The notes under the pieces were generated by a model, which did no database searches, was not told the DNA's origin, and saw only the letters and a list, made by a program, of their open reading frames with translations. A DNA stretch of 49,060 bases from Tubulanus polymorphus (Eukaryota; Animalia; Nemertea), in contig NC_134031.1 of assembly GCF_964204645.1 (NCBI RefSeq), forward strand, positions 21,574,217 to 21,623,276, given 5' to 3'. Position numbers and translations under genes: made by a program. Positions 1 to 46,852 of this stretch are shown here, piece after piece. Position 1 is the stretch's first letter; every line of letters begins with the position of its first letter.

Positions 1-2
1 AT

Positions 3-173
3 GCTTCATTTCAGTTAGGATCGGTTATGACATTAATTTCTACTGGTGTCATAACATTTTCGAACATCAAGCCTATGGAATATAAATCAGGTAAGAACGA
101 AACAGATGTACTACAACCAAACAGCGAAACAGAAAATGAATCAGAACAAAAATTAACTAAAATAAATGAGTGA
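3..173 (+). CDS. 3' end of a Polinton ORF of unknown function (partial)
   Basis: Open frame from the window edge, ASFQLGSVMTLISTGVITF...EQKLTKINE*, overlapping the next ATG at 166. Confidence 0.45.
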   Translation, partial: ASFQLGSVMTLISTGVITFSNIKPMEYKSGKNETDVLQPNSETENESEQKLTKINE

Positions 174-531
174 TAGCGTTAAGAAAAAGGCTAGATCCGA
201 GAAACAAATTATATGGGCAAGAGAATTAGGTAAAAGATCTTCAGAATTAAAAAAAGCTAAAAAAAGAAATTAACTGATATAAATGAATCACAGACTTTAT
301 CTGATATTGATTCAAATAATAATCCATCTGATTCTTCTAATGCTGGAAGTAATTATAAATTATATATTACAATTGGATTAGTAACAGTTATTATATTATC
401 CGGTGTAATATATAAATCAAAATTCAAATCTGATGATAAAGATGATTCCAATGACAATAAACCTATTATACCAGAAAATAAGTCAAATCATAAAGTCATT
501 GAAACTTAATCTAAATTATTATTAATGGATT
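166..531 (+). pseudogene. Small Polinton membrane protein, frameshifted
   Basis: TAAATG start; basic N-terminus MSDSVKKKARSEKQIIWARELGKR, frameshift near the A-run at ~260-270, then hydrophobic LYITIGLVTVIILSGVIY; stop at 507-509 (a further stop at ~530). Confidence 0.5.
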
Positions 532-539
532 AAAATAAG

Positions 540-1630
540 ATGAAAAAAGAACAATATTTAAGAGATTTATATTATAACCCAGAAAGTGAAGTATCATATT
601 CTAACGTTTCAGAATTATGGAATAAAATTAAATCTGATGATGAAAATGGTAATATAAAATATAGTGAATTGAAATCATGGTTACAAAATCAACCAACATA
701 TCAAATCCACCAGAAAATGGATAAAACTTATTTAACAAGAAAGGTTATGGTTTCATATATCGATCAACAATGGCAAGCAGATTTAATTGACATGAAGAAC
801 TTAGAGGAATACAACAAAGGATATTTCTGGATATTAAATGTTATAGACATATTCAGTAGATACGCATGGTCAATTCCAATCAAAAATAAAACTGGAATAG
901 AAGTAACAAATGCTTTTAAATCAATATTTAAAGAAGCTATTCCAGATAAGATACAATTTGATGAAGGTAAGGAATTCTATAACAAACATTTTAAAAAACT
1001 ATTATCTGATAACGATGTAGATTATTTTTCAACACACTCAGATAAAAAAGCATCTATTATAGAAAGATTTAATAAAACATTGAAAACTAGAATGTGGAAA
1101 TATTTTACTGCTAATGAAACATATAAATATATCGATGTATTAGATGATTTAGTGAAAGGTTATAAAATTCTAAACAAAGTTCTATAAATATGAAACCTAT
1201 ACAAGCTAGAAAAGAAGATAATTCAGAAATAGTTTGGAATAATTTATATGGCGCATTTGTTACACATGATTTCGGAGAACCTAAATTTAAAATTGGACAA
1301 CACGTTAGAATATCTAAATATAGAAAAACATTTTATAAAGGTTATACCCCTAATTTTACAGAAGAAATATTCAAGATTAAAAAGATAATATTAACTAAAC
1401 CATTTGTTTATAAATTAGAAGATTTAAAAGATGAAGAAATATTAGGTTATTTCTATGAACAAGAATTATCACTTGTACCAAATCCAGATGAAATAGAATA
1501 CAAAATAGAAAAATTATTGAAAACAAAAACTCTTAAAGGAAAAAAGTATTCTTTGGTGAAATATAAAGGATATGATGATAAATTTGATGAATGGATTTTA
1601 TCTAGTAAAATTAAAAGAATAAATGAATAA
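540..1630 (+). pseudogene. int: Retroviral-like (rve) integrase with C-terminal chromodomain, one frameshift
   Basis: QWQADLIDM / IQFDEGKEF / SIIERFNKTLK give the D-D-E triad. ORFs 540-1187 and 1190-1630 join by a 1-bp indel near 1165 (restores GY.NSKQSSINMKP). Chromo-like tail YKIEKLLK...SLVKYKGYDDKFDEWI. Confidence 0.92.
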
Positions 1631-2234
1631 AGATTTATTTATATTTGAACCGCATAATATGTTAATAACTGGAGTAACCAATTGTGGTAAAACACATTTC
1701 ATATTAGATTTGTTAGAAACTATTTATAAGAATCATTTTGATAATATAATATTATTCTGTCCTACTTATGAAATGAATAAAACATATAATAGAGATATAG
1801 TTAAGATGAAAAAGTTTATTATATTAAATCCTAAAACAGTAAAAGAAAATTTAGATAATTGTATAACAATAGCAATTCATACTTATAAAGGATCAAATAC
1901 ATTATTCATTGTAGATGATTGCGCAAATTTACATGATTCAAAAGTTAGAGAAATTGAGTTATGTTATCTAGCTTTCTCTGGGAGACATTTTGGGATAACA
2001 ACATGGGTTTTAAATCAAAAATATAATTCAATTGTTAAAGACTTTAGGGAGAATATAAGATTTCTAGTTTTATTTTACAATAAAGATAGAAAATCTATGC
2101 AACAATCATTGGAAGAAAATCAAATTATACCTACTGAATTACATGATGGATATATGAATAAATTAAAGAATAATAAAGGTTCAAAATTATTACTGAGATT
2201 ACAATTTCCATATGAATATAAATTTATAAGATAA
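1623..2234 (+). CDS. A32/FtsK-like genome packaging ATPase
   Basis: Walker A GVTNCGKT, Walker B LFIVDD, GRHFGITTWVLNQ and FREN motifs; adjacent to the integrase as in Polintons. Confidence 0.9.
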   Translation: MNKDLFIFEPHNMLITGVTNCGKTHFILDLLETIYKNHFDNIILFCPTYEMNKTYNRDIVKMKKFIILNPKTVKENLDNCITIAIHTYKGSNTLFIVDDCANLHDSKVREIELCYLAFSGRHFGITTWVLNQKYNSIVKDFRENIRFLVLFYNKDRKSMQQSLEENQIIPTELHDGYMNKLKNNKGSKLLLRLQFPYEYKFIR

Positions 2235-2251
2235 CTATTTATAATTTGGAA

Positions 2252-2599
2252 TATTATAGAAACTAATTTATATATCTATGTACAAGACGTACGAGTAAGA
2301 AAGTAAGATTCTTAGATTCTTACGTACGTCTAGTACATAGATATATAAATTATTAAATGAATTATGTAAAAATGAATAAATTATATGTTTTCTCTTAATA
2401 ATAATAAAAATAGATTATATTATAACTATTTCTATACTTAGATTAATAATTTTTTTTTAATTTAAATGTTTTTAATTTTTATGAAAACTATTATATGTAT
2501 CTATGTACTAGACGTACGAGTAAGAAAGTAAGATTTCTTGGATTCTTGGATTCTTACTCGTACGTCTAGTACATAGTTATATAAATTAGTTTTATAATA
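2252..2599. repeat. Two related long hairpins filling the convergent intergenic region
   Basis: Hairpin 1: 30-bp arms 2264-2293 / 2323-2352 (1 mismatch). Hairpin 2: perfect 26-bp arms 2501-2526 / 2551-2576. Both share CTATGTACWAGACGTACGAGTAAGAA. Confidence 0.9.
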
Positions 2600-2600
2600 A

Positions 2601-3809
2601 TTATTCTAATTTTGTTTCTAATATATTTATAAAATCATCTCTGTTTATATCTAATTCACCAAAAGTCTTAGGTAGATTTATTAATTTTAATTGAGCCATC
2701 TTAACATAATAATTAGTAGGTATATTAGCTTTTTCTCTTAATTTTTCTAAGTATTCATCAAAATCATCATTATCAAAATCAAATTGATATCCAAAATGTT
2801 TTATCAGATAACTTAAATCTATTTTTCTAATATATAATAATTTATATATTTGTTTAGGATTATCTTCTGCATAAGCTAATAATTTATCATATAAAAACTT
2901 ATAGAATATATAATATTGGTTAGTTTTAGGATTAAAATATCTGATATATTTATTTGGGTTATTTAACAATGGTATCATACTCACCATTTTATAAACATTA
3001 ATTAGATGTAACTTTGATTTATAATGAGTATTTTCATCAACAGGATCAATTTTCTTATTACAATATTGGCACGTTTTATTTCTTTCTATTTCTTCTAATT
3101 TCTTTTCATGTTCTTCTAACTTCCTTTCATTTTCGATATGCGCTTGAGATTTTTTATGTTTAGAAAAATTACTTTTAGAAATATCTAAATAACAAATGTT
3201 ACAATGTTTTTTAGAATCATCAATTGTTTCATTATCATTAGTTTCAATTGTATCAACATTATCTGTTTTATTATCTATGGTATCATTTGTTTCAATTGTA
3301 TTAACATTATCTATGATATTATCTATTATATTATTATCAGATATATTATTATCATTATTATTCTTTTCTTTTTCTATATGTTTATTTGATTTCTTATGTG
3401 ATGCCCAATTTTTATATGATATATATTTCTTACATACATCACAATATTTTTCATTTGTCTTTTTGGTTTTGATATCAGGTTCAATCTTATCATTATTAGA
3501 TGTAGAAGGTATTACATTATTAGATGTAGAAGGTATTACATTATTAGATGTAGTAGGTATTACATTATTAGATGTAGAAGGTATTGCATTATTAGATGTA
3601 GAAGGTATTACATTATTATCAATTACATTACTTAAATTATCAACAACACCACTTTTATTATTATCGATTTCTATTAGTTTAGTTTTATAAATTTTGAAAA
3701 TAGGATCAAATATCAAAGCTATATTACAAGGTATTACATAATATAAACCATCACTATTTTCATGTGTATCGATGTATGGAATATGTTTATATACTTTACC
3801 TCCTTCCAT
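2601..3809 (-). CDS. Polinton accessory protein with three U1/matrin-type zinc fingers and NN(V/A)IPSTS repeats
   Basis: Intact 402 aa; CDVC..H..H, CNIC..H..H, CQYC..H..H; 24-bp coding tandem repeat x5 at ~3490-3620. Confidence 0.8.
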   Translation of the reverse strand: MEGGKVYKHIPYIDTHENSDGLYYVIPCNIALIFDPIFKIYKTKLIEIDNNKSGVVDNLSNVIDNNVIPSTSNNAIPSTSNNVIPTTSNNVIPSTSNNVIPSTSNNDKIEPDIKTKKTNEKYCDVCKKYISYKNWASHKKSNKHIEKEKNNNDNNISDNNIIDNIIDNVNTIETNDTIDNKTDNVDTIETNDNETIDDSKKHCNICYLDISKSNFSKHKKSQAHIENERKLEEHEKKLEEIERNKTCQYCNKKIDPVDENTHYKSKLHLINVYKMVSMIPLLNNPNKYIRYFNPKTNQYYIFYKFLYDKLLAYAEDNPKQIYKLLYIRKIDLSYLIKHFGYQFDFDNDDFDEYLEKLREKANIPTNYYVKMAQLKLINLPKTFGELDINRDDFINILETKLE

Positions 3810-3841
3810 TTATTATATAAATTTTTATTAAAGTTAAAATT

Positions 3842-5094
3842 TTAATACATAACACTATTTAATTGAGAATTTACAATATTTAATTGTGCGTCAGATATAA
3901 TATAAATATGCATTTTGAAATTTAGGCTTCCTTTTTTCTTTGTCATGAATAATTGTATTCCATCTTAAGTGTTTTGTAATTTTTTTTCCAGAACCATGTA
4001 ATGAATTATCCTCTGTTGTTCTAAAATCTAACCATAATGCATATTTATTGCCGGTATAATAATCAATTTGATTAATATTACAATTTTCAGATGATTTCAC
4101 TTTTTCATTCATAAAATGTTTTCTAATTTCTGGCCATTGATCTATCATTCTGATTCCTTGACAAAATATTTTATTTGCTATTCCTTCGATTTTCTACTAT
4201 TTCTACTTTTGTTATTTCAGGATTATAATAATTATCAACATTTATTGCGCCATTAGTATATGTTGCAATGGTAAAAAATATTAATATACTTTCAATAGAT
4301 CTTCTTGGGAAGTTAATATTCTCATTAATAATCTCATCATTTGCATTAATAGTTACGGTTTTAAATTTATCAATATAATCATATAATAATGAAAATCCTT
4401 GATTGTATTTAGTTTGAATTATACTTGAAATATTTTCATCAGTTACTGTATCATATTCTAAACATATATTCGATAATTTATAACTCATATCTTTATTAAC
4501 GCTAGATATTACAATTTCATTAACAGGAGCAAATGTTATTTCGAATATAACATCTTCTTGAATTGCGTATTTATATAAAGGTGCATTATTATTTATCAAT
4601 TCAAAGTCTAATGGAATTTTATATTTGCTTCCATATATACTTTTTATCAATTTATCTGTAGCATTAGTTAATATTGCATTATGTGCTTCTGATCTTAATT
4701 TATTTTTGTTTTCTGATTGCATGCCTTGAAATATCATATTATTTCCATTTTCTTTAGTTAACCATAAATCTTTATAATGCATAAATAAATTATAATCATC
4801 TAATGAGAAAACTGTTTCTGGACCAATCTTTATTGTTAATTTTTTAATCAAATACCTTCCAACATTATCAACAACATAATTATTATTATTACCGATTACT
4901 TTTATATCGGCTGATAAAATAATACTATTTGGAACATAAAAAGTATTTTGTGTTAATCTAGGAATTCTAACATATAAAGTTTCATCAGGATTAATATTAG
5001 AAGGGTTATGAGTAATTATATGATGTGATCTTTCTGCTTTAATAGCATTAGATATTCTATGATTCTTAGAAGGATTTATATTATTTCCACTCAT
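3842..5094 (-). pseudogene. Major capsid protein (predicted double jelly-roll), frameshifted
   Basis: ORFs 4171-5094 and 3891-4148 plus a third frame (...IYIISDAQLNIVNSQLNSVMY*) join to ~415 aa; beta-rich motifs LIKKLTIKIG, YKIPLDF, VIFEITFAP, YKLSNICLEYD; size and position fit a Polinton MCP. Confidence 0.75.
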
Positions 5095-5114
5095 TTATTT
5101 AACAAAAAAATTAA

Positions 5115-5840
5115 TTATTTAATTTTTATCATGTTTACTAATCCACCTTCACTATTTTCTAAAATGAAATTAACCCAACCATTATTGTTTTGTTGTTGTA
5201 TATTATTATAATATTTTGGTAATTCATTCCAATTTATTGTTCTTATATCTGAATTTGTCATTTGTATTTTTCCAAATTCTTTAGTATATAATATTCCTAA
5301 TCCACCCATTGTTCCAATTTTTGCTCTAAAATCTTTATTTGCATTAATATTAAATTCATTACATATTTTATAAAACTTAGAAAAATTAATATTATTATTC
5401 AATTCTTTAAAATATTTTGAACCTGGTAAAGGACATTCTAATTCATCTAATATTAATTTTATTTGAAAATATGTATGAAATCTAAAAAGTGATAACATCA
5501 ATGGTAAACTTGGTTTGTTTAAATGATCATTCCAACTAATTCCAAATCCTGTTGTTGCGCAATAAACAGCAAAATTTAATTGGTTATGCCAATACTTCAT
5601 ATTCGATTTTAATAACCATTGTTTTGCCTCATTTAAATTTTTGAAATTAATTGTATACCCATGAAATATATTTTCCATCTTTACATGAAAATTATTACTT
5701 TCAGTAACATAAATATATAAATCAATTAATGAATTTAAAACTTCATTTCTATATGTAATATCTTTATTAAAATCTATTGCTGGAATATTATATTTAATTG
5801 ATGTATTATATTGGAAAGCTTTTGGAAAACTATCTACCAT
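5115..5840 (-). CDS. Polinton protein of unknown function
   Basis: Intact 241-aa ORF in the structural block (WHNQLNFAVYCATTG; FRFHTYFQ) with the shared upstream motif. Confidence 0.7.
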   Translation of the reverse strand: MVDSFPKAFQYNTSIKYNIPAIDFNKDITYRNEVLNSLIDLYIYVTESNNFHVKMENIFHGYTINFKNLNEAKQWLLKSNMKYWHNQLNFAVYCATTGFGISWNDHLNKPSLPLMLSLFRFHTYFQIKLILDELECPLPGSKYFKELNNNINFSKFYKICNEFNINANKDFRAKIGTMGGLGILYTKEFGKIQMTNSDIRTINWNELPKYYNNIQQQNNNGWVNFILENSEGGLVNMIKIK

Positions 5841-5856
5841 TTATATAATAAAAAAA

Positions 5857-6281
5857 TTAATAATTTATTAATTCTTTTAATAATTTATCTTGTTCTTCAA
5901 CTGTTATATGACCATTTAAACTTATTATATAATCTAGTGTATTTTTTAATTTATTAATTTCTTTTATATTTGTTTTAATTTTTTCTTTATTACTTTTTAT
6001 ATTTAATTTTGAACTTATACCGGTTAAAACACTTGAACTTAATCCTAGTACGCCAATTGATATAGCTAAAGGTGTTAATGGACTGAATATTGCTACAAAT
6101 GTTATTACAGAACTAATTGTAACCGAACCACTGATAATAAGATAATATATAATTTTACTTTTAAATATTTTTTCTTTTTAACTTTTAAGTCACTTTCAAA
6201 TTCTAATATTTGTTTTTCTAAATATATTTTTAATTTAGTTTTATTTATATCATTAGGAATATTATCAATATTATCATCCAT
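5857..6281 (-). pseudogene. Two-TM small protein, frameshifted (absent from the ORF track)
   Basis: ATG at 6281; 1-bp loss near 6153; restored KKKYLKVKIIYYLIISGSVTISSVITFVAIFSPLTPLAISIGVLGLSSSVLTGISSKLNIK...; stop 5857-5859. Confidence 0.65.
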
Positions 6282-6301
6282 TTATTTAGCAAAAAAAATT
6301 A

Positions 6302-6655
6302 CTAATTAGTAAACTTATAAGCAACAAATATAACAATAACTGTTCCCCCTAAAATCCATATTATTTCATATTTCTGTTGTTCTTTACTTGGGGTATAATA
6401 ATCTGATAATTTAGGTTTGTATAGATGTAATTTTTCTTTATTGGTTACCGCGTTATATAAACTCATTGCATCATCAACTGCTTTATTGTATTTCCCTAAC
6501 GCTAAGTTATGTCTTTTTTGTTCTGTTAATGATCCATTTTTATCAATATGCTTAAATAAATAACCACCGCCAGCTAATGCTAAAGCGTTAACAATTGCCG
6601 ATCCAATAATAGTTATAACTGCAGAAGCCATTAATTTAATAAAATAACTATGCAT
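6302..6655 (-). CDS. Small membrane protein (N- and C-terminal hydrophobic segments)
   Basis: AVITIIGSAIVNALALAGGGYLF and IIWILGGTVIVIFVAY. Confidence 0.7.
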   Translation of the reverse strand: MHSYFIKLMASAVITIIGSAIVNALALAGGGYLFKHIDKNGSLTEQKRHNLALGKYNKAVDDAMSLYNAVTNKEKLHLYKPKLSDYYTPSKEQQKYEIIWILGGTVIVIFVAYKFTN

Positions 6656-6877
6656 TTATATGGGAGGAATATATTTTTGTTTTTCTAAATAATCAATAGT
6701 TAAATTAGATAAAGTAACTGCTAATGTTAATTTTAAAATATCATTGATATCAAATCTATCAACATTAACACTTCCCATTTTAAATTCTTTTTTTAATACC
6801 ATTGAATAACTAACAGTTCCAACTGATAGTAATGCTCCATTATATAATCCAGTTATTATCCACTTATTATCACTCAT
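6656..6877 (-). CDS. Small hydrophobic Polinton protein
   Basis: 73 aa; its stop TAA abuts the next ATG; shared upstream motif. Confidence 0.65.
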   Translation of the reverse strand: MSDNKWIITGLYNGALLSVGTVSYSMVLKKEFKMGSVNVDRFDINDILKLTLAVTLSNLTIDYLEKQKYIPPI

Positions 6878-7154
6878 TTATTTATCAAAAAAATTACTAT
6901 CATCAAAATATTTAGTTAACTTATTTATGATTAAATCAACATTTATTTCATTACTAGTTTCATTTGTATATATTTCAATTATTATTTTTTTAATATCATC
7001 GATGATAAAATCTTCATCTAATTCATAAAATCATAAAGATTCTCTAATTAAATTAGTAATCTTATTAAAATACATCATTAATGTTAAATTCCATTTCTTT
7101 CTCATGTTTAAAATCAAACCCAAAACATATGCTCGGTCCAACAGTTATATTCAT
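6878..7154 (-). pseudogene. Small acidic ORF, disrupted
   Basis: Shared upstream motif then MNITVGPSICFGFDFKHEKEMEF...; needs one frameshift and one stop read-through. Confidence 0.45.
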
Positions 7155-7170
7155 TTATATAGTGAAAAAA

Positions 7171-7929
7171 TTACTCTCTACATCTTATAACTAATTCATA
7201 AATTACAGGAAAGTTATTCAAATCAATTAAATATCCATTGTGATTTCTTATTTCTAATTTAAAATTATTAAATTGAGGAATATAAGGTTTAAAATCACAT
7301 TCTGTTAAATTATAATTTATTTGAGTTCCAAATTGTTTAACATTTTTTAGCGGTAAAATATTTAGTATACTAGAACTACAAATTGTTTCTTTAGTTGCTT
7401 CGAAAGTTTTTGTAGGCTCGATTAAATTGCAATAAATATAAAAGTGTGTAAAAGGTATTATATTTGAATTACCATCTACGTTTCCTGTAACGGTATCTGG
7501 TACAATTCCTAACAGTTTAGCTATAGGTTTTTTTACCATAAATGCATGTTGACTTTCATCATATACCTTTATTTTAATTTTATTTGTGCTATCACTTTTT
7601 ATAAATCTAATTACAAATTTATCATCTCTTCTAATTTTCAACCGTGCTCTTCGATTAATTTCTTGAGCTAATTTATCTAAATTATATAATCCTGGTTTTG
7701 AAATTAGATGAAACCATTTATCTACATTTCTAATATGAATTAAAACAGTATTATCTTCAATAGTTTTATCCGATATATTATAAAAAGAATTACATAAACT
7801 TATATTTACTAATTTTAAATCTACACAATTCTTGAATTCTCTATCTAATTGTACCAGTAAATTATGAGATTTATAATTTGTAAGTTTTCTAGAATCAACA
7901 AATATTCTGTATTCTTTTAATTCTACCAT
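7171..7929 (-). CDS. Minor capsid (penton, single jelly-roll) protein
   Basis: IFVDSR N-terminus, LKLVNISL, FYIYCNLIEP, ILNILPL, FKLEIRNHNGYLIDLNN C-terminus as in Polinton pentons; 252 aa. Confidence 0.7.
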   Translation of the reverse strand: MVELKEYRIFVDSRKLTNYKSHNLLVQLDREFKNCVDLKLVNISLCNSFYNISDKTIEDNTVLIHIRNVDKWFHLISKPGLYNLDKLAQEINRRARLKIRRDDKFVIRFIKSDSTNKIKIKVYDESQHAFMVKKPIAKLLGIVPDTVTGNVDGNSNIIPFTHFYIYCNLIEPTKTFEATKETICSSSILNILPLKNVKQFGTQINYNLTECDFKPYIPQFNNFKLEIRNHNGYLIDLNNFPVIYELVIRCRE

Positions 7930-7946
7930 TTATTTTACATATTTTC

Positions 7947-8303
7947 TCATTCGAAATCTATTTCATGGTGCCCTTTTTCATTCTTACCTGTATTGTATAT
8001 GAAATAGAAATCTCCAGAACATAATTCTTCTAAATCTTCACTTGATAATCTATGAAATCTATCTGGTAAATATGTTCTGAATTTATATGTATTTCCTTTT
8101 AATCCTTCATATTCTAAGTGTATAACTAATTTATCTCCATATTTGTTAGTAACTGTATCAATATTTGTAATTAGATATTTCTTATGGATTATTAATTCTT
8201 TTAACTTCTTAAATTTATAATCTACTGATTTGACATTTGAAGTATCTTTTATTCTATCTAGAAATGATTTGTTGTTCTCACTGTGTGCTTGTTTACTCTC
8301 CAT
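7947..8303 (-). CDS. Small protein downstream of polB, possibly OB-fold ssDNA-binding protein
   Basis: Beta-rich 118 aa (KYLITNIDTVTNKYGDKLVIHLE, TYLPDRF), acidic end, co-oriented with polB. The SSB function is inference. Confidence 0.5.
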   Translation of the reverse strand: MESKQAHSENNKSFLDRIKDTSNVKSVDYKFKKLKELIIHKKYLITNIDTVTNKYGDKLVIHLEYEGLKGNTYKFRTYLPDRFHRLSSEDLEELCSGDFYFIYNTGKNEKGHHEIDFE

Positions 8304-8831
8304 TTTAATAACATATTTTTATTAAAATTTGATTAACACGTTAGAATTCTTTTCATTATCTCGTTCTCTTTTGTCTCTTCTCTTTTAAATTTTAAGTATT
8401 CATCTAAATTGCAACCATAAGCAACTGTATGAATTCCATCATCTAAAATATATCTTTTATCATCAAATGGGTTTAGACTTATCTTTTCAATTTCTTCAAT
8501 AAACATTTCATGATCTTCAGATCTTAAACATCTCATCTTATGTTTTCTAACTTCTTCATTGAATAAACAATTGATGTAATCTTTGAAATGAATATTCTTT
8601 TCTACTACACTTTTGGTTATTCCTTTTAACTTTTTAGCTTCATGTTCTTTAGTTTTATATGAATACATTTTAGATCTAATACCAATGAATTCAATCATTT
8701 CTTCGCCACCTAATTCATCCTTAAACTTCCCTGGAACTTTTTTATTATCATTGCTAAACAATTCCTGATCTTTAGGATAATTACTGAAATCAAAATGATG
8801 TTTTAATGTTTTTAAATCATTAGTTATGTTA

Positions 8832-11511
8832 CGGTTCCTGAACTTCGCTGAAAAAGCTGAAACACTAAAACGATGAAACGCTGAAATAAAAACGCTGAAA
8901 TTTCAGGGAATTTCCGAAAAACGCCGAAATATCAGGGAATTCCCGAAAAACGCTGAAATCGTGCTAGGTACCGACAATACACGTTTTGAAATTCTTTCCG
9001 GTCCGGTGTCCGCTGCCGAGTCCTGAACCGTGTTTTAGACTCTACCTTCGGTTACAGAGACATGCCTTGAGGTCGTTGTCATGTTTGACTTGATCGATTG
9101 CGGATTGCGTGGATTGTTAGATGTGTTTTTTGTTTTATGCGCATATACCGGTACGATCTAACAATGAAGTTATCACTTCATTTGAATAAATTCTTAATTA
9201 CAGTAATATCAATTGTCAATATTTTTTCTTATGTTTGGTGATTTCTTCCAACTTATCATTGCCAAGTCTCATACAAAAGTAGTAGTGAAAGTACAGCTAG
9301 TAAGGCTGAACCTGATAACCCAAATTAAGTGCTAGCATGAAACTTATGATTATTTAGATTCTATTTCAGTGTGAATAAAGGTTCAACCGTCATAGTATAC
9401 TGTACTTAGCGTTACTACGATTGGGTGCCATATTTCTACAATCTCTACAAGGAAGGAGTCTTGGAGTGTCTCGTTCCCGGGTAGGCATCCTCGCTTGCCA
9501 GGGGACCAGTATCGCTCCCACACTCACTTCCACCAGCCCCCTGGCCTCACGACGCGCGATTTCATTACCAGCGCTTTAGCGAATGACGTCATAGGCCTAT
9601 ATCAACACGCGACAATACTTCCGTTTTCGCTACGTGTTCGCTGATTGGTCCATTTACCGGGAAATTCCATAGATGCCCAATGTCATTTGTAACAAGCGCT
9701 GTGATTGGCCCGACCTGATTCTGGTCGGCTAGTAACGACTCGTGAGGTCAAGCGGTTCGGAGAACAGCTTTAGTGTAGCGGGTTCGAATCCCTTGACAGG
9801 TGAAGATGCCGGGTAGGGTACGGGGTAAAACCTGGTTTACTTTCTCTGTCTACTTGCTGGAGACTACTATCAGCAATGTATTGCATGCATTGATTTGTCT
9901 GGCTTATGAGAGTCGAACAACGTTTTCCCATACACAGGCTTGGCCTTAGTACTAGATGAAGTCTAGGCACTGCACATTGTGGATTGACTGGAACTCTAAA
10001 CTCACAAAATTAAACGAGTCAACAAGAAAGATCCTATAATTTGACGTTTGTCTAATTATATTATTTAATAGCTTAAAATAATACTTAACACATTCTACAA
10101 GAGTACACAAAAGAAATCAGTTCTTACATTATATCAGAATCAATAGTTCGCTTAACTCGGGCTTGAATTCTGGTTCCATTGCTTCATATTCTAATGAAAT
10201 TCACTAGCATACCTTAGAATATCGCTTAGCTTAAGATAAAAAATTTGGTACCAGGAAAACGAGGAAGTAAAGTGGGTGTACTGTACATCCGATATTGACT
10301 TATTTCTCTCTGGTTGAATCAAGTTATTACTGAAATAGCATTCGAATAGCCATTTTGTTTTTAAAAATTGTGTCGTTCAGCTATCCTGCTGCAAATTTCG
10401 CAGTTGAAGTTAACTAGTGCCAGCTGATTTCTCAGTATCTCAAATTTGCACATTCTTAGCCCGAGTCTAAAAATAGAAAAAAGTGCATTTAAAGTAGGAA
10501 ATAAAAGAATAGTGGCTAATACACCCTGGAGATATAGCCTATGGGGTGGGCCTAGTTTGAAAGCACTGAGGTCCGAGGGAACAGCACTTTGTAAATAAAT
10601 ACTGAAATTAAACTTACAAAACACCCAATACTTGAGATTATGTACTTGACAAGAAGTGTGTCCAGCTAAGCAAATCAACTTTGTCTATGACTCCTCCTTT
10701 TATAGATACCGTAGTAGTCTAAAAATAAGAATCGGTACATTTTTCTAACAGTTGGTATGTCATTTTTTGAAAAAAAAAAACTTATTATTATCACAACACA
10801 GCAAATAAATTACAGTTGTTGAATGGTTTGCACGATTTAGATTAATTGGTTGATGCTAATTAGTATGATCTATAAGTAGGGGCCTACTGCAAGTCATTGG
10901 CGTCAATCCATTCCATTCACGGTGAATTAAAAAGAGATTTAGTTAGATCCCTTTGTCCAAAAGCTGCATCATTAATATAACTAGCTGTCAAATTTAATTT
11001 ACCTCCTTCAGAGAATGCCATAGTCCGTCGCCCATTAATGTGTTGACAAAAGAAAAGTTGCTTATAATCCTGTTTTATACATGGTCATGAACGATACGTC
11101 TTGCAGAAGTAAACCATATTCTTGGAATATTGAGCATAGTGTTTAAGTTGGCTTGCACGGTTTGTGAATGGGTTTTCCTCATCATGCTGCCTGTATGGAT
11201 TAAAAATCCGGATTTCAAGCGAATTAATTTGTCCAACAAGTGGCCCTCTAGAAGTATACTCCACACATACCGCCCATGTATGTCTCTGTAACCGAAGGTG
11301 GAGACTAAAACACGGTTCAGGACTCGGCAGCGGACACCAGCCCGGAAAATATTTCAAAACGTGTATTGTCGGTACCTATCACGATTTCAGCGTTTTTCGG
11401 GAATTCCCTGAAATTTCGGCGTTTTTCGGAAATTCCCTGAAATTTCAGCGTTTTTATTTCAGCGATTCAGCGTTTCAGTGTTTCAGCTTTTTCAGCGAAG
11501 TTCAGGAACCG
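8832..11511. mobile_element. Non-autonomous DNA transposon, ~232-bp TIRs, 9-bp TSD (Mutator/MULE-like)
   Basis: TIRs 8832-9063 / 11280-11511 (CGGTTCCTGAACTTCGCTG...); TSD GTTATGTTA at 8823-8831 and 11512-11520; no transposase ORF. Confidence 0.92.
9740..10020 (+). mobile_element. Possible tRNA-derived SINE relic inside the TIR element
   Basis: A-box-like GAGGTCAAGCGG (~9744) and B-box GGTTCGAATCCC (9781-9792); A-rich tail near 10000-10020. Confidence 0.3.
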
Positions 11512-14500
11512 GTTATGTTATCATTTTTTATCTTTAATATGTAAGAATCTGTATCAAAATATAATATTTCTATATGTTTTTCTCCAAAAAGTGGTTGTAA
11601 TACATTATAATAGAATTCATACATTAGTAATTTTGATAATTCTAAAACTGAAGCGCCAACATAGATTGGTTTATTAAATTTCATTGATGTTCTTCTCATT
11701 TTAACTGCAGCTAAATTTTCATCAAATATTCTGTTACCAATGAACTTAGGATGTGTTTGTAAATGTCTAATTCTTTTACCATTACTGACTAACTCAATAT
11801 CATTTCTATTTCTAATATTTTCACAAGTCTTACCATAGAATGCATTATTCATTAACTTGAAGAAATCTTTCTCGAAATCAGTTTTAGCTTCAGTTCTCTG
11901 TTTGGTGTTAAAATCTATATATTTTTCTAACCACTTAGATTGACTAAATGAAATATATCTATGTACTTTTTTTAGAACCATTCCTTGATTCAAATAAAAC
12001 TTTAACATTCTATAATGTACTACATAATTATATTTATCTTCTTGAGTTACCATTAACTTTTCTGTATGAATATGATTTTCGGTTTAATTCTTTTTTGGTA
12101 ATTTGATAATTCTTCATGAGTTACAGTTTTATGTTCTGGACAGTATGCTAGATTTCTAGATTTAAATTTAATATGTTCAGGATATTCTAAATCTACAACA
12201 AAGAAGTAACCAGTATCTGAATCATCTGCAATATCTAGAATTCTTTTCTTCCAATCAAATTTATCATTATTTTCATTCTGTAAAACTTCACTTATTTCAA
12301 ATACTCCATAAGGTTGTGGTTCCATCATTGCTCAACCATACAAATTATTTGCATCTATATATAATAACTTATATCCGGGGTTATCATTTACATTGAAATA
12401 TCTATCACCTAATACACCTGAAACTCCTCCTCTTATAGATTTTTCAGATAATAATAATTGATCTATATTTGTTAACAAATCCATTTTTATATCTGTAAAT
12501 TTTAATCCACAATCCCATGTTAATCCTGGACTTGAATAACAATGACAAGGATCAATATTAAAATATTTTAGGTTTACATCTCTAAACCTTTCGAATATAT
12601 CGGTTAATAATAATACATCTGATTTTAAATATAAATCTACTAATTGCCCATGATTTTCTATTTTGAAATGATTCCAAATATTCAATGTTCTATTATATAC
12701 TTCATCTTTAACGTATTCATTTTTTAATTCATCATAGAATTGTTCTTTCAATAATTCAGTTATGTTAAAATCATTATGTGATTTATAAAATGAATATGGA
12801 ATTGCGCCTTAATATCTCATTAATTGGAAATCATCATTATTTGGATAGTGTTGCTTTAATATCTTTAATTCATCATCAACTAATGATTTTGATAAGTTAT
12901 CTAATGAACTATTTAAAAATCTATATGAATCTATAAATCTTAGGCAACCAAATTGGAATGATATATAATTCTCAGATGTTTTAGCTAACATTCTAAATTT
13001 ATAAGTTGGTATTTTATCTTTTGATCTATTTGAATTTAATCTTTCTATTTCATTATTAATTTCTTCTATTTCATGGCATAACTGTTTGATGAATAAATGT
13101 GCATCATATCCTGATAGATTATGAAATATAACTGGTACAAAATTGATTTTCTTAGCTTGTAAGTTACAATTCTCATGCGCTGCGCCTCTAAACTTTCCAT
13201 TCAAATGATCATGGTCTCTTACTTTTTTATCTTTATAATTAAATATCTTTTCACAATAATAACATTTATCTGCAAACGCAAATTCTTCTTTATCTTCTTC
13301 TGTCATTATAATTTCTATATTTGTATTCTATAATTTACTAAATCTTATTTCATATTCAATTAATAAGTCACAAAAATGATTGATAACATTTTCATTTCTA
13401 TAATCATAATATTCACTTTCAATTAGTTCTGGTTAATCAGATTTAATATATAACCCGAAAGCTGCAGCTGATTGATGAATCTTTTTAATAGTATTTGTTT
13501 TTGGTGGTTCTTCAGAATAATCATTTTCATTAGAATTTAATTTCTTTCTTTTATAATATATTTCTTTTCTATCTTGATCAGTTAATTCTTTATTTAATGA
13601 TTCAAAATCTCCATATATTACAAATGGTACATTATTTTTGTAATCATATTTTTTGAATTCTAATATTTTATCCTTTTCGTTTGGTAAAACTAATTTACAA
13701 TAATCATGATTTTCACATAATTGTTTATGATTTAATAATGTACTTTCATTACTGAATCTATGTAAACATTTTCTACATAGATATATTTTATGGTGATCAT
13801 TTTCTGATTTAAATAATAAATCGATTTGTTTAATCCACATATAATGATTCTCATAATATAGTATATCTATAACACCATTTGAATCATAATCTTTCGATAG
13901 ATATAAAGGTTCTTATGTATAATGTTTTATATTGTTACCTTTTGTATTTGGTAATTTGATTAAATCAAATACATTTATTCTTAAATTATTATCTCTTTCT
14001 ATTTTTGGGATGTTTTTAATTATAACAGGATACTTATCCATCTTATAATTATTTTCAAATTGTTTATAATTTGTTAATCTATAAGTATGTTTATTATAAT
14101 CTTCAACTGGGTGTAAACAACTTATAAATGTCCATAGAAAACATTTATCATCTTCATTTTGTACATTTATTACAGCATTAGTTTTAAATGGTAGTTTAAT
14201 ATAACTCGATGCTTCAATATCTGGTTCTTTATAATATGATACATTATTTTCATCGATTGGTTTTGATTTAGTTAACTTATTATATTTTGTGTTATAAACA
14301 TGTAAAGTCATAAATATTATTTCATCAAATATTAAACCAGATCCTTCAAAATATTTCTCTTCTATTTTAGTTTTTACTTCATTATAACATTTATCTAATT
14401 TATCATCTATATGTTGTTTTGAAATAATATGTTGTGAATGAGAATTTATATTATATATTGGTTTATCTTCAGATTTTATGAATTTAACTTTTGATGAAAT

Positions 14501-15267
14501 ACTTATTTTAGGATATTCAACATCAGTAATTATTTTTGTTATTTCTTTCATATTTTCTAAATGTTTTATATTTTCTTCTAATGTTTTTCCTTTATGAAAT
14601 TTAAACACGATAGCTGCTGGACCAATATCACTTTTAAATGCTTCGGTTATCTCTATATCTTTTTTATTATCTAATGAATTAATATAATTTCTTACATCTT
14701 CCATGTATGGTCTTTTATTGTTTAATTTATTTTTTATGCTTTTAATTGTCTTCTGTTTCTATCATTATCTTTATCAAAATAATCTACACCTAAAATATCA
14801 TTATTCTTATTTCTAATATGACTTTTAGATTTTAAATGTTCATTATAATATCTTTTATCACTGAATGATTGATTACATGTATCACATTTGTATGTTTCTT
14901 TTTCATTCTTTAATTCATCTAATTTAGTTTCTAATATATCATCTTTATATTCTAATTTCAATTTATTCTCTAAATGTGTTTTAGTTTTATTGTGTCTGTC
15001 TTTTTGGGATTTATCTATATTGATATTACATGTTGGACAGTAGTACTTATTTGCTTCCATTTTAATATCAAATTTTTTTTTTTAAATTGATTTTAGAAGT
15101 TCAATGATTTATATCATGCATTATTTCAATCACACTTTACTAACACTTTCAATGTTTAAAAATCTAACTCACACAAATATGAATATTGGAATAATGTTGT
15201 AAATATATACTTTTATATTGAATAATCTATCAATTCAAATGTTATTCATTTATATGTTTATTTTAAG

Positions 15268-15677
15268 AGTAATAGGGGTAATGGGCTTTCAGGTTAAAGG
15301 TTGAATGGTTGAGTTCATTAAAAACAAATATTAAAAGTAATTTAAAACTATAATATATTTTCATAACCGTGTGTATTTCAGTTGAATAATAGAATAATTA
15401 TTATTATTAAAATATATTTGATTATATGAATTTGTGTATTGTAAATAAATCAATTGGTCGCGGAGCGGAGCGGTAGCGAAGTGGAGCGACCAATTGATTT
15501 AATACAATATGCTTTTGAAATTTAAATTATTGATATCTTAGAATAAATATTTAGTTATAATATAAAATGCACACGGTTATTAAAATATATTATAGTTTTA
15601 AATTACTTTTAATGTTTTGTTTTTTAATGAGCTCGACCGTTCGACCTTTGGCCTGAAAGCCCATTACCCCTATTACT
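15268..15677. repeat. Fold-back palindrome at the Polinton terminus
   Basis: ~110-bp arms AGTAATAGGGGTAATGGGCTTTCAGG... / ...CCTGAAAGCCCATTACCCCTATTACT; central 15-bp stem 15447-15461 / 15486-15500. Confidence 0.9.
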
Positions 15678-15945
15678 AGCATTTGATAAGGTTCAACATC
15701 AGCCATTACTAAAGAGGCTATTAGGAAACAGTATCAATGATAGGTCGTTAAAATGGCTCAGCAGTTATATCTGAACGGAAACTTGTAACCGAAATCAACG
15801 GAACGCCTCATCTTGGAATGAGACGGTCTAACTAGTGGAGTCACGCAAGGTAGTATCCTAAGTCGTCTTCTGTTTAATGTCCTGACAAATGACATACAAA
15901 GTAATCCAAAATATACCAGACCGAGTAAATTTCCAAAACGACCTT
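15678..15945 (+). pseudogene. Captured LINE (CR1/L2-like) reverse-transcriptase fragment, copy 1
   Basis: Translates to AFDKVQHQ..., KWLSSY, SGVTQGSIL, LFNVLTNDI; frameshifted. Confidence 0.75.
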
Positions 15946-15980
15946 AACACACTGTTCGACCAAAAAACTTAATGTTCCGA

Positions 15981-18245
15981 CAAAACCACGGGGACAAAAC
16001 CAAAATTATGAATTGTCGCGGGTGACAAAACCAAATTATTGAATTGTCACGGGCGACAAAACAAAAATAATGAATTGTCGCGGGCGATAAAACCAAAATA
16101 ATGAATTGTCGCGGGCGATAAAACCACAATAATGAATTGTCGCGGGCGTTAAAACCAAAATATTGAATTGTCGCGGCGATAAAACCAAAATAATGAATTG
16201 CCGCGGACGACAAAAACAAAATATTGAATTGTTGTGTGCGACAAAACCAGAAAAATGAATTGTCGCGGGAGACAAAACCAAACTAGGGGTCCAGGGACAC
16301 CATGCTCACTTGGGAAGTGGTTTCAAATGCTCAACAATCTAACAATTTTAATACATAACGCCCTCTAGTGACCATATACAAAAACCAATGACCTCGAAAC
16401 CCACCACAATCATAGAACATGTGAGCAGCTATGATTTTGTAATTGATTGTGATAACAAAATATGCCTCGTTACCAATTTAATATGTAAATACTAAGTTAT
16501 TCTACTATTCAACGCCCCTGGTGACCATATGCAGAACCCAATGACCTTAAAACTCACCACAATCGTAGTACATGTCATGAAATACAACTTTGCAATTGAT
16601 CATAGTAACAAAATATGCCTAGGTACCAATCTAATAAGGAAATACTAAGCCATTCTACTATTCAACGCCCCCTGGTGACTATATGGAATAACTAATGTCC
16701 TTAAAAACTCACCACAATCATAGACGATGTCATGAACTACAACTTTGCAATTGATCATGGTAACAAAATATGCCTTGGTACAAATATAATATAGCAATAC
16801 TAAGTTATTGTATTATTCAACGCCCCCTGATGGCCACATACTGGCCACAACCAATGACCTTGAAACTCACCAAAACCATAGAACACGTTATGGGCTACAA
16901 TTTTCCAATTGAATGTAGTAACACAATATGCTTAGGTATCAATTTAATGTGGAAAAACTTTTTCCCACCTACGAATGAGTACTGATGACACCAAGATGGC
17001 CGCCAATTGCGTCATAATTGGCTGATCAAAAATACCTGTCCCAGGTATAAAACATACCTCTCTAAAGAATACCCATCAGCAATTGCAATGAGAAATGGCA
17101 AACCAGTAGGAAGCTACGTGACCTAGAATTCTGGCCAAAATTGACATTTTGGGCACTAAAAAGGTCATAGGACGGCCATCTTGAGTCAGATCGACCCAAT
17201 TTTCTTATGCTGATGGGCCTTTGGTAGATTCAAATATAAACGAAAGATCAAGGTAATTGATCAAAGCGTCTTCGAAATTTCCCACGAAAACTTCGAAAAT
17301 GTTTAAAAAGTGCTGATTTTGGCAAACAACAATGGTTGCCAGTCGGCCATCTTGAATCTGACAGGGCCAGCTTTTGGGCTGACGATGTGTCTAGGGTAGA
17401 CACATGTATAAACCAAATATCAAGACATTCCCTTGAAGCGTCTTCAAAACTTCCCAAAATAACTGGATTCCGTCTATGGACCGACGGACGGACGAAAAGT
17501 GAACGTAATAGCCCGCTGGGACTAAATCCCCAAGTGGACTGAAAAAGAATTGTCGCGGGTGATAAAACCAAAATATTGAATTGTCGCGGGCGACAAAACC
17601 AAGCTAATGAATTGTCGCGGGCGATAAAACAAAAATATTGAATTGTCGCGGGCGATAAAACCAAAATAATGAATTGTCTCGGGCGACAAAAACAAAATAT
17701 TGAATTGTCACGTGCGACGAAACCAAAATAATGAATTGTCGCGGGCGATAAAACCAAAATAATGAATTTTCGCGGGCGTCAAAACCGTAAAGAAGAATTG
17801 TGGCGGGCGACAAAACCAAACTAATGAATTGTCGCGGGCGACAAAACCAAAAAAAGAATTGTCGGGGTGACAAAACCAAAATAATGAATTTTAGCTGGAG
17901 ATAAAACCAAAGTAATGAATTGTCGTGGGCGATAAAACAAAAATATTGAATTGTCGCGGGCGACAAAACCAAAATAATGAATTGTCGCGGGCGATAAAAC
18001 CGTAATAATGAATTGTCACGGGCGATAAAACCAAAATAATGAATTTTCTCAGGCGACAAAACCAAAATAATGAATTGTCGCTGGCGATAAAACCAAAGTA
18101 TTGAATTGTCGCGGGCGACAAAACCAAATTAATGAATTGTCGCAAGCGATAAAACCAAAATAATGAATTGTCGCGGGCGATAAAACCAAAATATTGAATT
18201 GTCGCGTGTGACAAAACCAAAATAATAAATTGTCGCGGGCGACAA
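15981..18245. repeat. ~31-bp tandem satellite (AAAACCAAAATAATGAATTGTCGCGGGCGAY), split by an insertion
   Basis: About 10 units at 15981-16283 and about 22 units at 17542-18245. Confidence 0.95.
16283..17541 (-). mobile_element. HINE/DINE-1-type element with four ~154-bp internal repeats
   Basis: Minus strand starts AGTCCACTTGGG..CCCAGCGGGCT (subTIR + IR), then (GTCC)n; ends CCCAAGTGAGC + small stem-loop; repeat units start ~16357, 16511, 16664, 16819; inserted in an A/T run with no TSD. Confidence 0.75.
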
Positions 18246-21200
18246 GATCAAAATCATTGTTTTCTCGCGTTATTTTAGTTTTGTCGTTTTGTCGTAATGT
18301 CGCCCTCATTTGCATATTCGTGTTTTTTATCTTACCAGCCACCATACTAAAGCTTTAAGGTCGCCTAAAACTCGATAAACACTTCAAGCGACACAGCGAA
18401 CGATCTCCTTTCCCCCACAGCGAACGCTTACTCCGAATGTCAAGTGTGAGTCAGCATACGGATAGGAGTGTGTTATATACTTGTATTTAGTAAATACCTT
18501 GTGGATTTGACAATGATCGGTATGTACTGTAGGAAATATAGAGTATTGATGGTATTGATATAGAGGCCCGCGGCCGAATAAAGTAATATATTTTTTTATT
18601 TTTATACCTCGTCGACATAACAGCTTTTCTCCGCTATATCTCTTCGGCGTGTTTAGTTTAGGCCTACGACTCCCCGGTACACTTATGATTTATCTTAGTA
18701 AATATACGGTTAATTTGGTAAAGAAAAATAGGTATTGCTAAACTAACTGCTTGACGCCCGCAGCCAAATCACTGGTAGTAATAAATTAATTTGTACTCGA
18801 TTTGATTCTCATGATGAGGAGAAACTCGCAGCTGATCCCCGGAACGACGATGTAGTAACACACGTCGATTCGTCGATGTTTACGGCTCGACAGTGCTTTT
18901 AAAATCTAAAGTAGTAAATTTCCAGTGTATCGGTAATATGATTTGATGAGGAAAATGGGCTATTGTTAAAATCACTGTTTGAAGACCGCGACTGAATTTG
19001 AAGTCTGCGGCAATAAATTAGTTCATTTATACTTGAATTGATAATCGAAGTGACAGTCGGCCTGCGGGTTGATTTCGGGATGACGACTCGAAAAACATGT
19101 CGTTCCATTGAATGGGGCTAAATTTTCGATGTTTACGGCCCGACAGCGATTTTGTAACTATGATTCGTGAAAAAACACGCGGAACGCAGTCTCAAATGTT
19201 TTGTGACTTTCTCAAAATGTATCAAAAATTTAAGTAATTTTTAGTTCATAAGTCTTCAAATATTCATAAATGAACAGTTAAAAATTGTTGAAACATGTCG
19301 ACTCAGCCGTAAAATCACCCATTCACAGTCCCGAATGTGGGATAATGTCGGGCTTTAGAGAACATAATGCCCCCGAGGTCTTCACATTTACAAAAAAAGA
19401 TTATGTAAGCGTGTCGCGCGTTACACCGGATAGGCACACAATAGAAATATGAGCCGCACGTTCATTTGATCATCACCAATTAAGAGGACCGCTATTGTGA
19501 AAATTGACTGCGGGAGGAATATTCCTCCCAAAGTCAATCGATGGAAACTTGACCAAGGGGTCTGATATTCAAACAATTGACTTTGGGAGGAATATTCCTC
19601 CCAAGGTCAAACGAAGAGAATTTGACCTTCAGTTCTGATATTCAAAGTATCGACTTCGGGAGGAATATTCCTCCGACTGTCAAACGAAGAAAAATGGACC
19701 TAGGTCTGATATTCGAAATATTGACTTTGGGATGAATATTCGTCCAAACCTCTAACGCTAAAAACCTGAGCTTTTAGAATGATAGGTCTACATAAATTAT
19801 ATTGATGTAATTGTTTTTAATAAATAGTATACTATAGCGACGAAACCAGACATATTTAGGCAATTTGATTGTTAATATACACTGTATTTGAGGGTCTGCG
19901 ACAAATAATTTTAGAAAGTTAAATAGCTGTAGTTCAGGTTCTAATAATGAGCCTAATATAGTCTTCACATCGCAATCAGTTGTTAGAATGCATCTTCCTT
20001 TTTCTTGTTTTGATCTGAGACGACTAGTTAAATTTTTTTCTTGATTGATTCACGCTGGGAGGTCTACATCAAATTATATTGTTGATCAAATCAATTATGT
20101 TTCAACTGCGAATTCACATTTGATATTGATATTAATAATCAATATTACTCGTCATTATATAGCGCACTGCTGCAAATTGTAACCAGTGTGCTTTTCACGG
20201 GTATAAAATTAACACAAGTTGAAGAAATCGAATTTGAAATACGAGGATTATAAAAAATAAGTTGAAGGTAGGGCGGAGAGATCTGACGAAAAGAAACAAC
20301 AAACGATATGGGCGCCAAATTGACCCATGCCTAATTGCCCGACCAAATAGTCCGACCTGACCTGAGTCAATTTAAGCCGAGTCAAATTAGAGCGTGTTAA
20401 TTTAAACTGGTTCTGGAAGTCAGTCACTTCGCTTTGCTTAAGTATGGACTCGTTTTAGAGTCTCTTCAAGCATTGTTTAGTATCGAATGAATGGGTTTGC
20501 ATTTGAATGTGAAATAAATTTGAACATGAAAATCAGCGCGCTCTTTGGTAAGCCATGAAAACAATTAAAGTCGGACCCTGATTCGAGCCAATTTTTTTGC
20601 AAATTAGCCATTGTCCTAGTTTTAACTTCTGATTTGTACCCTGTATAGGCCGGTTAATATTTCTGTTTGTACTCTTTCATACAAATTCGACAGATATCAA
20701 ATGGCATCTTTGATTACAGACACTGTTGACCGGTACACACCAATATGTCCATCCATCCGACATACGAGCAATCATCTCATTAATGAGATAATTGCTCGTA
20801 GATCCGACAGCTACGTTTTACAACTAAGAGTGCATAAAATCAGATTCCTAATGATATTACATGTATTACTATTAAGAATAAGCTATTAATATATGAATAA
20901 ATTCAAAAAGAATTTAGAAAATATCCTGCTTTGAATGGCTTTTAATTAAATATTGGAAAGGGCGATTTTGAAGGGGGAATTTTATCTGCGGTGTCACTGC
21001 TAATCGAGTAATCAAGAAGCACAAACTCCCTAAGGTGATAAAGTGTTTTAAGCAGATTCTTTTCCGATTGTGATCCCAATATATGAATTGCACATGGAAC
21101 TATTATGTATAAACACCTCTCACAATTTACGTAACGACTGAGTGGCGTCCTTTTGCACAAGCTATATTACACCATGATGAAAAGCCTTTTATAGTTTAGA

Positions 21201-46100: not shown

Positions 46101-46852
46101 TGATGACAGAGTTATGTGCCATTTTACACATTCGCAAGACCAACACTACTCCTTATAGACCCTCTTCTAATGGTCTCGTCGAGAGATTTAACAAGACGCT
46201 AGCTCAGAGTTTGAGAACTCGTGTGAATGAGAAACAGGATGACTGGGATGAGCACTTACATTTCATTACTATGGCTTTTCGAGCTACAGTACATGATGTG
46301 ACCGGATTCTCACCCAATTTTCTCATGTTCGGACGTGAAGTCGATATGCCGGTGGACCTTATATCTGGCCGTCCAGCGAACCAGGTGGCTTTTCCGTTTA
46401 CTCAGTATGTAGCTGAAATGAAGCGCGAGATAGAATCTGCATTTGAGATTGTCCGAATTAATATAGGAAAGAGAGGAAAGAGAAATAAACGGAACTACGA
46501 CTTACTTAGATCTGGATACGGTGTCGGGGATCAGGTATGGCTATTCCGTCCTGCTGTAGCGGTCGGCTGTAGTAGAAAGCTTTCGTCTTTCTGGAAGGGT
46601 CCATTCCCCGTCATCGAAGTAATTAATGACGTGGTATACAGGCTGTCGGTTCAGGGAAAGTCCGTTACAGCTCATTTTGATCGTCTCAAGCCGTATCATG
46701 CTGGTAACGTTTGTCCTCCTGAAATTAGAGACAAGAAAATGAGTGAAAGTAATTTTAGAAATTCTGACTTAACCCAGTCGGTGTATGATTCGTCAGATTC
46801 AGTTGTAACACGTTCGGGACGTCACATTAAGCGACCATCTCGATACAATTGA
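43094..46852 (+). pseudogene. pol: Pol (protease, RT, RNase H, integrase), disrupted
   Basis: LVDTGA and ILGMDFL (PR), YLDD (RT), DTDAS and TDHSSL (RH), HHCC plus GID/HSD/VERFN (INT), GPF motif; stop at ~43295, frameshifts at ~43600 and ~46090. Confidence 0.95.

Follow-up and report, generated by a model that had tools for sequence, protein, structure and literature searches.

A decayed Polinton of the nemertean Tubulanus polymorphus whose gene starts carry a conserved poxvirus-like promoter signature specific to its lineage

Animal Polintons may be autonomous or may need a larger virus. In a 49,060-nt stretch of the genome of Tubulanus polymorphus (NC_134031.1, positions 21,574,217 to 21,623,276, forward strand; hereafter the window), positions 1–15,260 are a decayed integrated Polinton, its left end cut off by the window. 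Nearly every gene of this element starts with a signal of the poxvirus post-replicative type, making transcription by a pox-like helper likely rather than by the host. An earlier note, made from the letters of this DNA alone, had proposed a cytoplasmic pox-like virus as the transcribing agent; a conserved rare motif, a match to real poxvirus starts and the lack of a detectable own polymerase speak for this proposal, while a poxvirus as the helper is not established. Post-replicative promoters of pox type, read as for a virophage by the RNA polymerase of a cytoplasmic pox-like helper, are the best explanation of the sequence patterns (probability about 0.6), and helper dependence of some kind is clearly more probable still. 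The signature itself, conserved and lineage-specific in an element of helper-dependent style, is real.

TAAATG was found at 10 of the 13 curated starts of the element as compared with 27 of its 548 other ATGs (Fisher p 1e-10); antisense open reading frames (ORFs), as well as ATGs lying within broken genes, were kept out of the curated set. At least five T followed by 5–7 nt and TAAATG precede 5/13 starts and 2/548 other ATGs (p 6e-8), and all window genes but one (12/13) have either TAAATG or TAAAATG joined to their start codon. Since the hexamer is at background level across the whole window (71 seen, 69 expected), the signal lies in its placement at starts. The five T-run sites, all on the minus strand, lie exactly where the earlier note had read them (starts 5094, 5840, 6281, 6877 and 7154; genes are named here by g and start position): (i) at the major capsid protein (MCP) gene (T7, 6 nt, TAAATG; 5092–5113), with the same type in the MCPs of all four related loci (L001–L004), (ii) at g5840 (T7, 6 nt, TAAATG; 5838–5859), with a near-identical site at the L001 orthologue, (iii) at g6281 (T8, 6 nt, TAAATG; 6279–6301; L001 orthologue T6, 8 nt), (iv) at the 73-aa gene g6877 (T7, 6 nt, TAAATG; 6875–6896; L001 orthologue T8, 5 nt), and (v) at g7154 (T6, 7 nt, TAAATG; 7152–7173), whose L001 orthologue is of A-run type. 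Six sense-strand T6 runs occur in the minus-strand block of the element, and five of them are these sites. The further TAAATG starts listed at 166, 1623, 3809, 6655 and 7929 were recovered as well, as were two of the exceptions, polB and the 8303 gene, which read A-run plus TTAAAATG.

A-run sites on the same strand precede the likely minor capsid gene (A4, 9 nt, TAAATG; 7927–7945; L001 orthologue A6, 9 nt) and a zinc-finger-like gene (A5, 9 nt, TAAATG; 3807–3826); in L002 and L003 the gene that follows the MCP gene has an A-run site too. TAAAATG follows the A-run at g8303 (8301–8320; L001 orthologue T6, 8 nt, TAAATG) and at the curated start of polB (A11, 8 nt; 15058–15083). At g6655 (6653–6658, minus strand) the TAA of TAAATG doubles as the stop of g6877, the sole stop-start case in the window.

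The four related loci stem from one metagenome scan, and their capsids are 70–74 % identical to that of the window. TAAATG is present at 26 of their 27 curated starts (L001 15/15, L002 3/3, L003 7/7, L004 1/2; 25/27 in an automatic ORF call), and in the clade as a whole, i.e., the window plus L001–L004, it is joined to the start codon in 36/40. The gene order is rearranged between these loci, and the motif is kept nevertheless. At least five T at a distance of 5–7 nt were found at 11/27 starts of the relatives; the spacer of the T-run sites has a mode of 6 nt and ranges from 5 to 9 nt across the clade, and the spacing is kept across intergenic gaps of 3 to >100 nt. A is found at position -1 in 36 of 38 clade starts, and T at -3 is almost invariant. 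L003 has a pair of start codons (5548/5568), that of the integrase and that of a divergent gene (5568–6083), standing back to back 19 nt apart with TAAATG on each. The latter gene gives a weak HNH match. In L001 an accessory deoxynucleoside kinase (PF01712) is encoded at 10340–10981; no named poxvirus relative was among its 38 matches. Viral contigs yielded no relatives of the window capsid.

TAAATG joined to the start codon is a described poxvirus signature (PMC5294985, PMC3061580), and the vaccinia late promoter consists of a T-containing core, 5–7 bp and TAAAT(G/A) (PMC5294985). Natural sequences from the core region of 42 poxvirus records (7 orthopoxvirus, 35 chordopoxvirus) served for comparison. 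About 40–60 % of the starts in AT-rich poxvirus loci are TAAATG; the orthopoxvirus core loci (10/24 starts) have both T-run and A-run cores as well as a back-to-back pair like that of L003. Taken from 17 of the 42 pox loci, 123 distinct 20-mers that span -20 to -1 and leave out the hexamer were made into a matrix, and z values were obtained against position shuffles. This matrix scored z 7.9 on the clade starts (n=33; L002 excluded as a near-duplicate) and z 5.0 on those of the window alone (n=10), as opposed to z 0.3 on internal TAAATG (n=66) and z 0.2 on TAAATG starts of control elements (n=26). The T-profiles of the clade and pox sets correlate with r 0.61; in both, T is most frequent around -10/-9 and drops at -6 as well as -3, consistent with the published late promoter (PMC5294985). 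Outside the hexamer, too, the clade sites agree position for position with authentic poxvirus TAAATG starts. AAAATTGA or the poxvirus early motif was found at 0/11, 0/6, 0/16 and 0/7 clade starts.

As controls, 100 Polinton-type loci (33 + 67) were fetched by polB alignment, and all ORFs of at least 100 aa were counted, flanking host ORFs included. TAAATG starts amount to 36/672 in total and to 4/67 in the AT-rich subset (14 loci, GC ≤0.30); among the 55 control loci with at least 5 ORFs just L028, L043 and L060 reach 30 %. In canonical Maverick relatives (nine host-derived loci) TAAATG is joined to the start in 1/77. Because it is rare in controls, the AT-rich ones included, the trait is lineage-specific and no AT effect, yet it is not unique. 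L028 (IMGVR_UViG_3300020002_000020) is a Polinton-like contig of GC 0.38 with 7/7 TAAATG starts and without a T-run core; its closest ATPase relative, L167, has 2/11. The virion genes of L043 and L060 are nearly identical, each locus having 5 starts with TAAATG and another 5 with TAAAATG, but their polB genes fall in different parts of the tree, which likely reflects a polymerase swap. On the pox matrix L028 scored z 0.8 and L043 z 0.2. In the polB tree L028 and L068, both with TAAATG starts, are placed near the clade with weak support (0.34–0.89) and with the motif-less L074 and L086 in between, so that a single origin of the motif is not established. Many records of bacterial or archaeal metagenome-assembled genomes (within L038–L104) carry Polinton polB contigs, likely as host contamination. 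The capsid tree has a 50-row clade (support 0.98) separate from L042 and L057; this Polinton lineage is a candidate member of the mavpol2 capsid clade.

A related pattern was found in sister Mavericks (L042, L049, L057 and L084, GC 0.39–0.46, plus L038), where T6-8, about 6 nt and TATA/TAAA at most 12 nt before the ATG occur at 12/40 starts as compared with 3/1599; the pattern was drawn up after viewing those loci, and two of the matches are duplicated genes. In 13 other Maverick-like loci it was found at 1/113 starts. It widens the finding, yet also fits an asfarvirus-like helper.

Within the clade the sites fall into two classes. T-run cores (spacer 5–9) precede the capsid gene in 5/5 loci, g5840, g6281, g6877, the kinase and the integrase genes, and A-run cores (spacer 8–11) precede polB, the zinc-finger genes, the minor capsid gene and, in relatives, the ATPase gene; g8303 and g7154 switch the core type between loci. 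The separate replication and late gene classes proposed in the earlier note do not hold, since the integrases of L001 and L003 and the g8303 orthologue of L001 carry T-run TAAATG. The split between T-run and A-run sites exists and function does not cleanly follow it, and a late/intermediate division that does not sort replication from virion genes is possible. The A-run plus TAAAATG of polB and g8303 resembles the vaccinia intermediate G8R scaffold, in which an A-run is followed by TAAAATG; intermediate promoters have an AT-rich core without consensus, a spacer of about 12 bp and TAAA (PMC12917281).

Under the favoured explanation the element, once excised, would replicate in the cytoplasm, within the factory that a pox-like virus sets up there. 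By analogy with vaccinia, the helper polymerase would read TAAA as initiator, start within its A-run and slip, so that the mRNA would have a 5' poly(A) leader immediately ahead of the AUG (steps described in PMC12917281, PMC6211774 and PMC7163114). With a start within TAAA, the T at -3 would be absent from the mRNA, so that the poor Kozak context should cost nothing. All genes would need post-replicative factors, since the early machinery carried in virions would presumably be out of reach for a parasite that is not packaged. A-run sites may be intermediate-like and T-run sites late-like, and the T-run may double as the end of the upstream transcript. In agreement with the earlier note, no RNA polymerase was detected among the proteins of the window and its relatives, nor a TBP, there being no complete member among these loci.

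Several observations weigh against this explanation. The helper is inferred from sequence only, and 0/167 ORFs from six poxvirus loci, restricted to the core region, match the window or its relatives. Just five clade loci are readable, L002 and L003 being nearly identical, and the pox training set consists of orthologous genes, which are not independent. The Polinton motif is more regular than that of poxviruses, whose AT-rich loci hold 1–3 T5 sites each. Since L028 has 7/7 TAAATG starts without a pox-like upstream profile, the hexamer alone is not diagnostic, and the giant-virus locus L122 also has TAAATG at 6/12 starts. Four non-pox giant-virus loci, picked by motif scan, reach z 3.1 on the pox matrix. 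About half of the clade sites have TATA, the late initiator of African swine fever virus (ASFV), just before the start. Finally, T6 runs are depleted in the sense coding strands of the clade (L001 2 vs 8.0±1.9; L002–L004 2 vs 10.5±2.2; window 1 vs 4.0±1.8); this depletion is absent from two AT-rich controls, but was also found in L009 and L043. Poxvirus post-replicative transcription is not known to stop at T-runs. The depletion suggests that transcripts end at poly-T, a mode of termination described for ASFV (PMC7163114).

When viral contigs were scanned with a strict 20-base motif, 20 stretches were returned, mostly phages and giant-virus bins with the match off gene starts; the remainder were two copies in one orthopoxvirus terminal repeat (non-coding) and L122, and none of these hits counts as support. 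An exact copy of the window's long motif was seen at 6001–6022 of L109, non-coding and beside tandem repeats of an orthopoxvirus terminal repeat.

The strongest competitor is a cytoplasmic helper other than a poxvirus: some giant virus, for instance an asfarvirus-like one, whose promoters combine a T-rich core with TATA/TAAA as initiator and whose transcripts end at poly-T. ASFV has TATA as late initiator, a late 5' untranslated region with a median of 9 nt, and transcripts ended by poly-T (PMC7163114), and the avoidance of T6 runs in sense coding strands, the T-run plus TATA/TAAA pattern of the sister Mavericks and the score of the other giant-virus loci all fit such a helper. It is nevertheless unlikely, as TAAATG joined to the start codon in 36/40 clade starts is the poxvirus signature and the pox matrix fits the clade better (z 7.9 vs 3.1).

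Somewhat less likely again is an autonomous nuclear element transcribed by host RNA polymerase II, perhaps with a factor of its own, from compact AT-rich promoters, the pox likeness being convergent. Integration implies that a nuclear phase exists, and several clade genes are without known function. However, no match to TBP or TFIIB was obtained among 16 window and 18 clade proteins, and the motif abuts the ATG, whereas the TATA box of polymerase II lies about 24–30 bp before the start site (PMC7163114, PMC5294985). The nearly fixed T at -3 and the two TAAATG starts 19 nt apart in L003 also speak against nuclear transcription.

An improbable proposal is that no promoter is involved and that the pattern arises from AT bias together with an in-frame stop ahead of the ATG and, behind each gene, a poly-T terminator. 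All five T-runs of the window indeed directly follow a TAA, at or just past the end of the upstream gene, and sense-strand T-runs are depleted. The AT-rich controls lack the pattern, however, and the upstream stop supplies the TAA in just 2 of 36 TAAATG starts; T-run sites are also seen at places without a gene end (L001 10981, in a divergent pair) and inside upstream coding sequence (L001 4328). Neither stop-start coupling nor a plain terminator thus explains the motif, the spacing of which is moreover kept whatever the length of the intergenic gap.

That the element has its own RNA polymerase in the part cut off at the left, like the yeast cytoplasmic linear elements with their pox-like initiators and own polymerase (PMC6211774), is very improbable, given that L001 and L003 reach further on that side with small genes only and that the capsid and kinase matches of L001 and a polB lie on 16,883-nt contigs, leaving, if these are one contig, about 1.3 kb (unread) after polB.

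Among known systems, the Polinton-like viruses AHEV_PLV1 and CBEV_PLV1 (Barth et al. 2024, PMC11296320) share the Polinton-type capsid module. They are proposed poxvirus hyperparasites from entomopoxvirus occlusion bodies, with capsids next to the mavpol2 clade. By their published description they are set apart from the Polinton studied here: they were found in occlusion bodies, AHEV_PLV1 without known integrase, while the present element is integrated and has an rve integrase and a protein-primed polymerase (pPolB). In the available text of that paper there is no promoter analysis (TAAAT, motif and transcription do not occur in the main text, nor promoter in the supplement). With the intermediate and late promoters of vaccinia the Polinton sites have in common TAAAT(G) over the start codon, the T peak at -10/-9, both core types and back-to-back pairs; they differ in being more uniform, e.g., in the A at -1, in having longer T-runs, and in preceding nearly all genes of an element that lacks transcription machinery. 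Mavirus and EMALEs with the CroV late promoter, as well as the pacmanvirus transpoviron, are likewise small integrating or episomal elements using the late promoter of their helper (10.1101/2025.10.09.676808, PMC11788076), but have protist hosts, the motifs TCTA/TATATA and known helpers, and reactivation of mavirus is experimentally shown. pPolB, rve integrase, packaging ATPase and double jelly-roll capsid are shared with animal Mavericks/Polintons (adintoviruses, PMC8502044), and small genes with the Mavericks L038, L042 and L057; an adenain maturation protease, a mark of adintoviruses, was not seen among the scanned ORFs of the window and its relatives, which are incomplete members. The pGKL1/2 elements of yeast are also protein-primed linear DNA with a TAAAN initiator, but supply both a polymerase and a capping enzyme of their own and lack a capsid (PMC6211774).

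In the literature searched, which left most subscription papers and preprint supplements outside, poxvirus-type promoters in a Polinton are unreported, and no helper for an integrated animal Polinton was found; the promoter tables of the Halocafeteria preprint, outside that search, could bear on the novelty of the motif. A pox-type promoter shared by the whole lineage allows an inexpensive test and is a marker in the sequence for sorting Polintons by helper. If the favoured explanation is true, animals carry integrated parasites of pox-like viruses, possibly as an inducible defence like mavirus in protists, and such viruses exist in hosts without any described. Tentatively, and with less than even odds, a whole branch of integrated animal Mavericks may be endogenous virophages whose cytoplasmic helpers are pox- or asfarvirus-like: the clade has TAAATG at the start, the sister Mavericks a T-run plus TATA/TAAA a few bases before it, and the other Maverick-like loci neither (1/113). 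In that case the promoter would tell the helper of each lineage and hint at undescribed pox-like viruses in Maverick hosts.

As to the element itself, GC is 0.20–0.27 apart from an insertion, and the copy is dead, MCP, integrase and polB all being broken. On the plus strand, the broken frame g166 (TAAATG at 163–168) is followed by an rve integrase with chromodomain (540–1630; PF00665, E 9e-10), which is broken into two frames and starts one base off TAAATG, and by an A32-like packaging ATPase (1623–2234; Pox_A32, E 1.7e-11), whose TAAATG start overlaps the integrase end. Two long near-perfect hairpins (2255–2597, z -17) lie between the convergent ATPase and zinc-finger genes. Hairpins of differing sequence are present at the same junction in L002 (3030–3220, z -10) and L003 (3680–3860, z -9); they may possibly mark transcript ends or a replication signal.

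The minus-strand genes comprise (i) the zinc-finger-like protein of 402 aa (2601–3809), for which Atlas matches below 0.9 give a lead only, (ii) the MCP (3841–5094), broken in its 3' third, (iii) g5840 (5115–5840; 241 aa vs 442 aa in L001), conserved in relatives, (iv) two small hydrophobic proteins of 117 and 73 aa (6302–6877), common to sister Mavericks, and (v) the likely minor capsid protein (7171–7929), assigned by sequence membership in a family that an iterative profile finds in many control Polinton loci. The MCP is a double jelly-roll protein according to the model of its natural relative P0002 (pLDDT 79), which matches the capsids of SGIV, PBCV-1 and mavirus (E 1e-11 to 1e-15). The designation of the T-run genes as structural is accordingly borne out for 5094, while a structural role of the other four is not established. 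g6281 and g7154 are broken frames, and the L001 orthologue of the former gives weak SLATT-domain matches. g8303 (7947–8303) had been taken for a single-stranded DNA-binding protein, which could not be confirmed (no Pfam match; single-sequence model with pLDDT 43, too poor).

The protein-primed polB (8333–15060, minus strand, true start at 15060) is broken by stops, frameshifts and an insertion; one fragment gives a DNA_pol_B_2 match below the cutoff (E 9.5e-5). It is 74–86 % identical over most of its length to the intact relative P0219, and its named relatives are from spiders, a bivalve and insects. The insertion (8832–11511) is a presumably Mutator-like transposon of 2.7 kb, whose inverted repeats measure 232 nt and whose target duplication is 9 bp long. 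Polintons typically have terminal inverted repeats and a 6-bp target duplication; here the left end lies beyond the window. The right edge holds a foldback of 410 nt that begins with AG and finishes with CT (15268–15677; single copy in the window), which may be either the terminus or an inserted miniature element or transposon. Rfam gave 0 matches in window positions 1–16000. The flanking host DNA contains 31-nt tandem arrays (15883–18368) and Gag/pol-like ORFs of a long terminal repeat retrotransposon (42159–46852).

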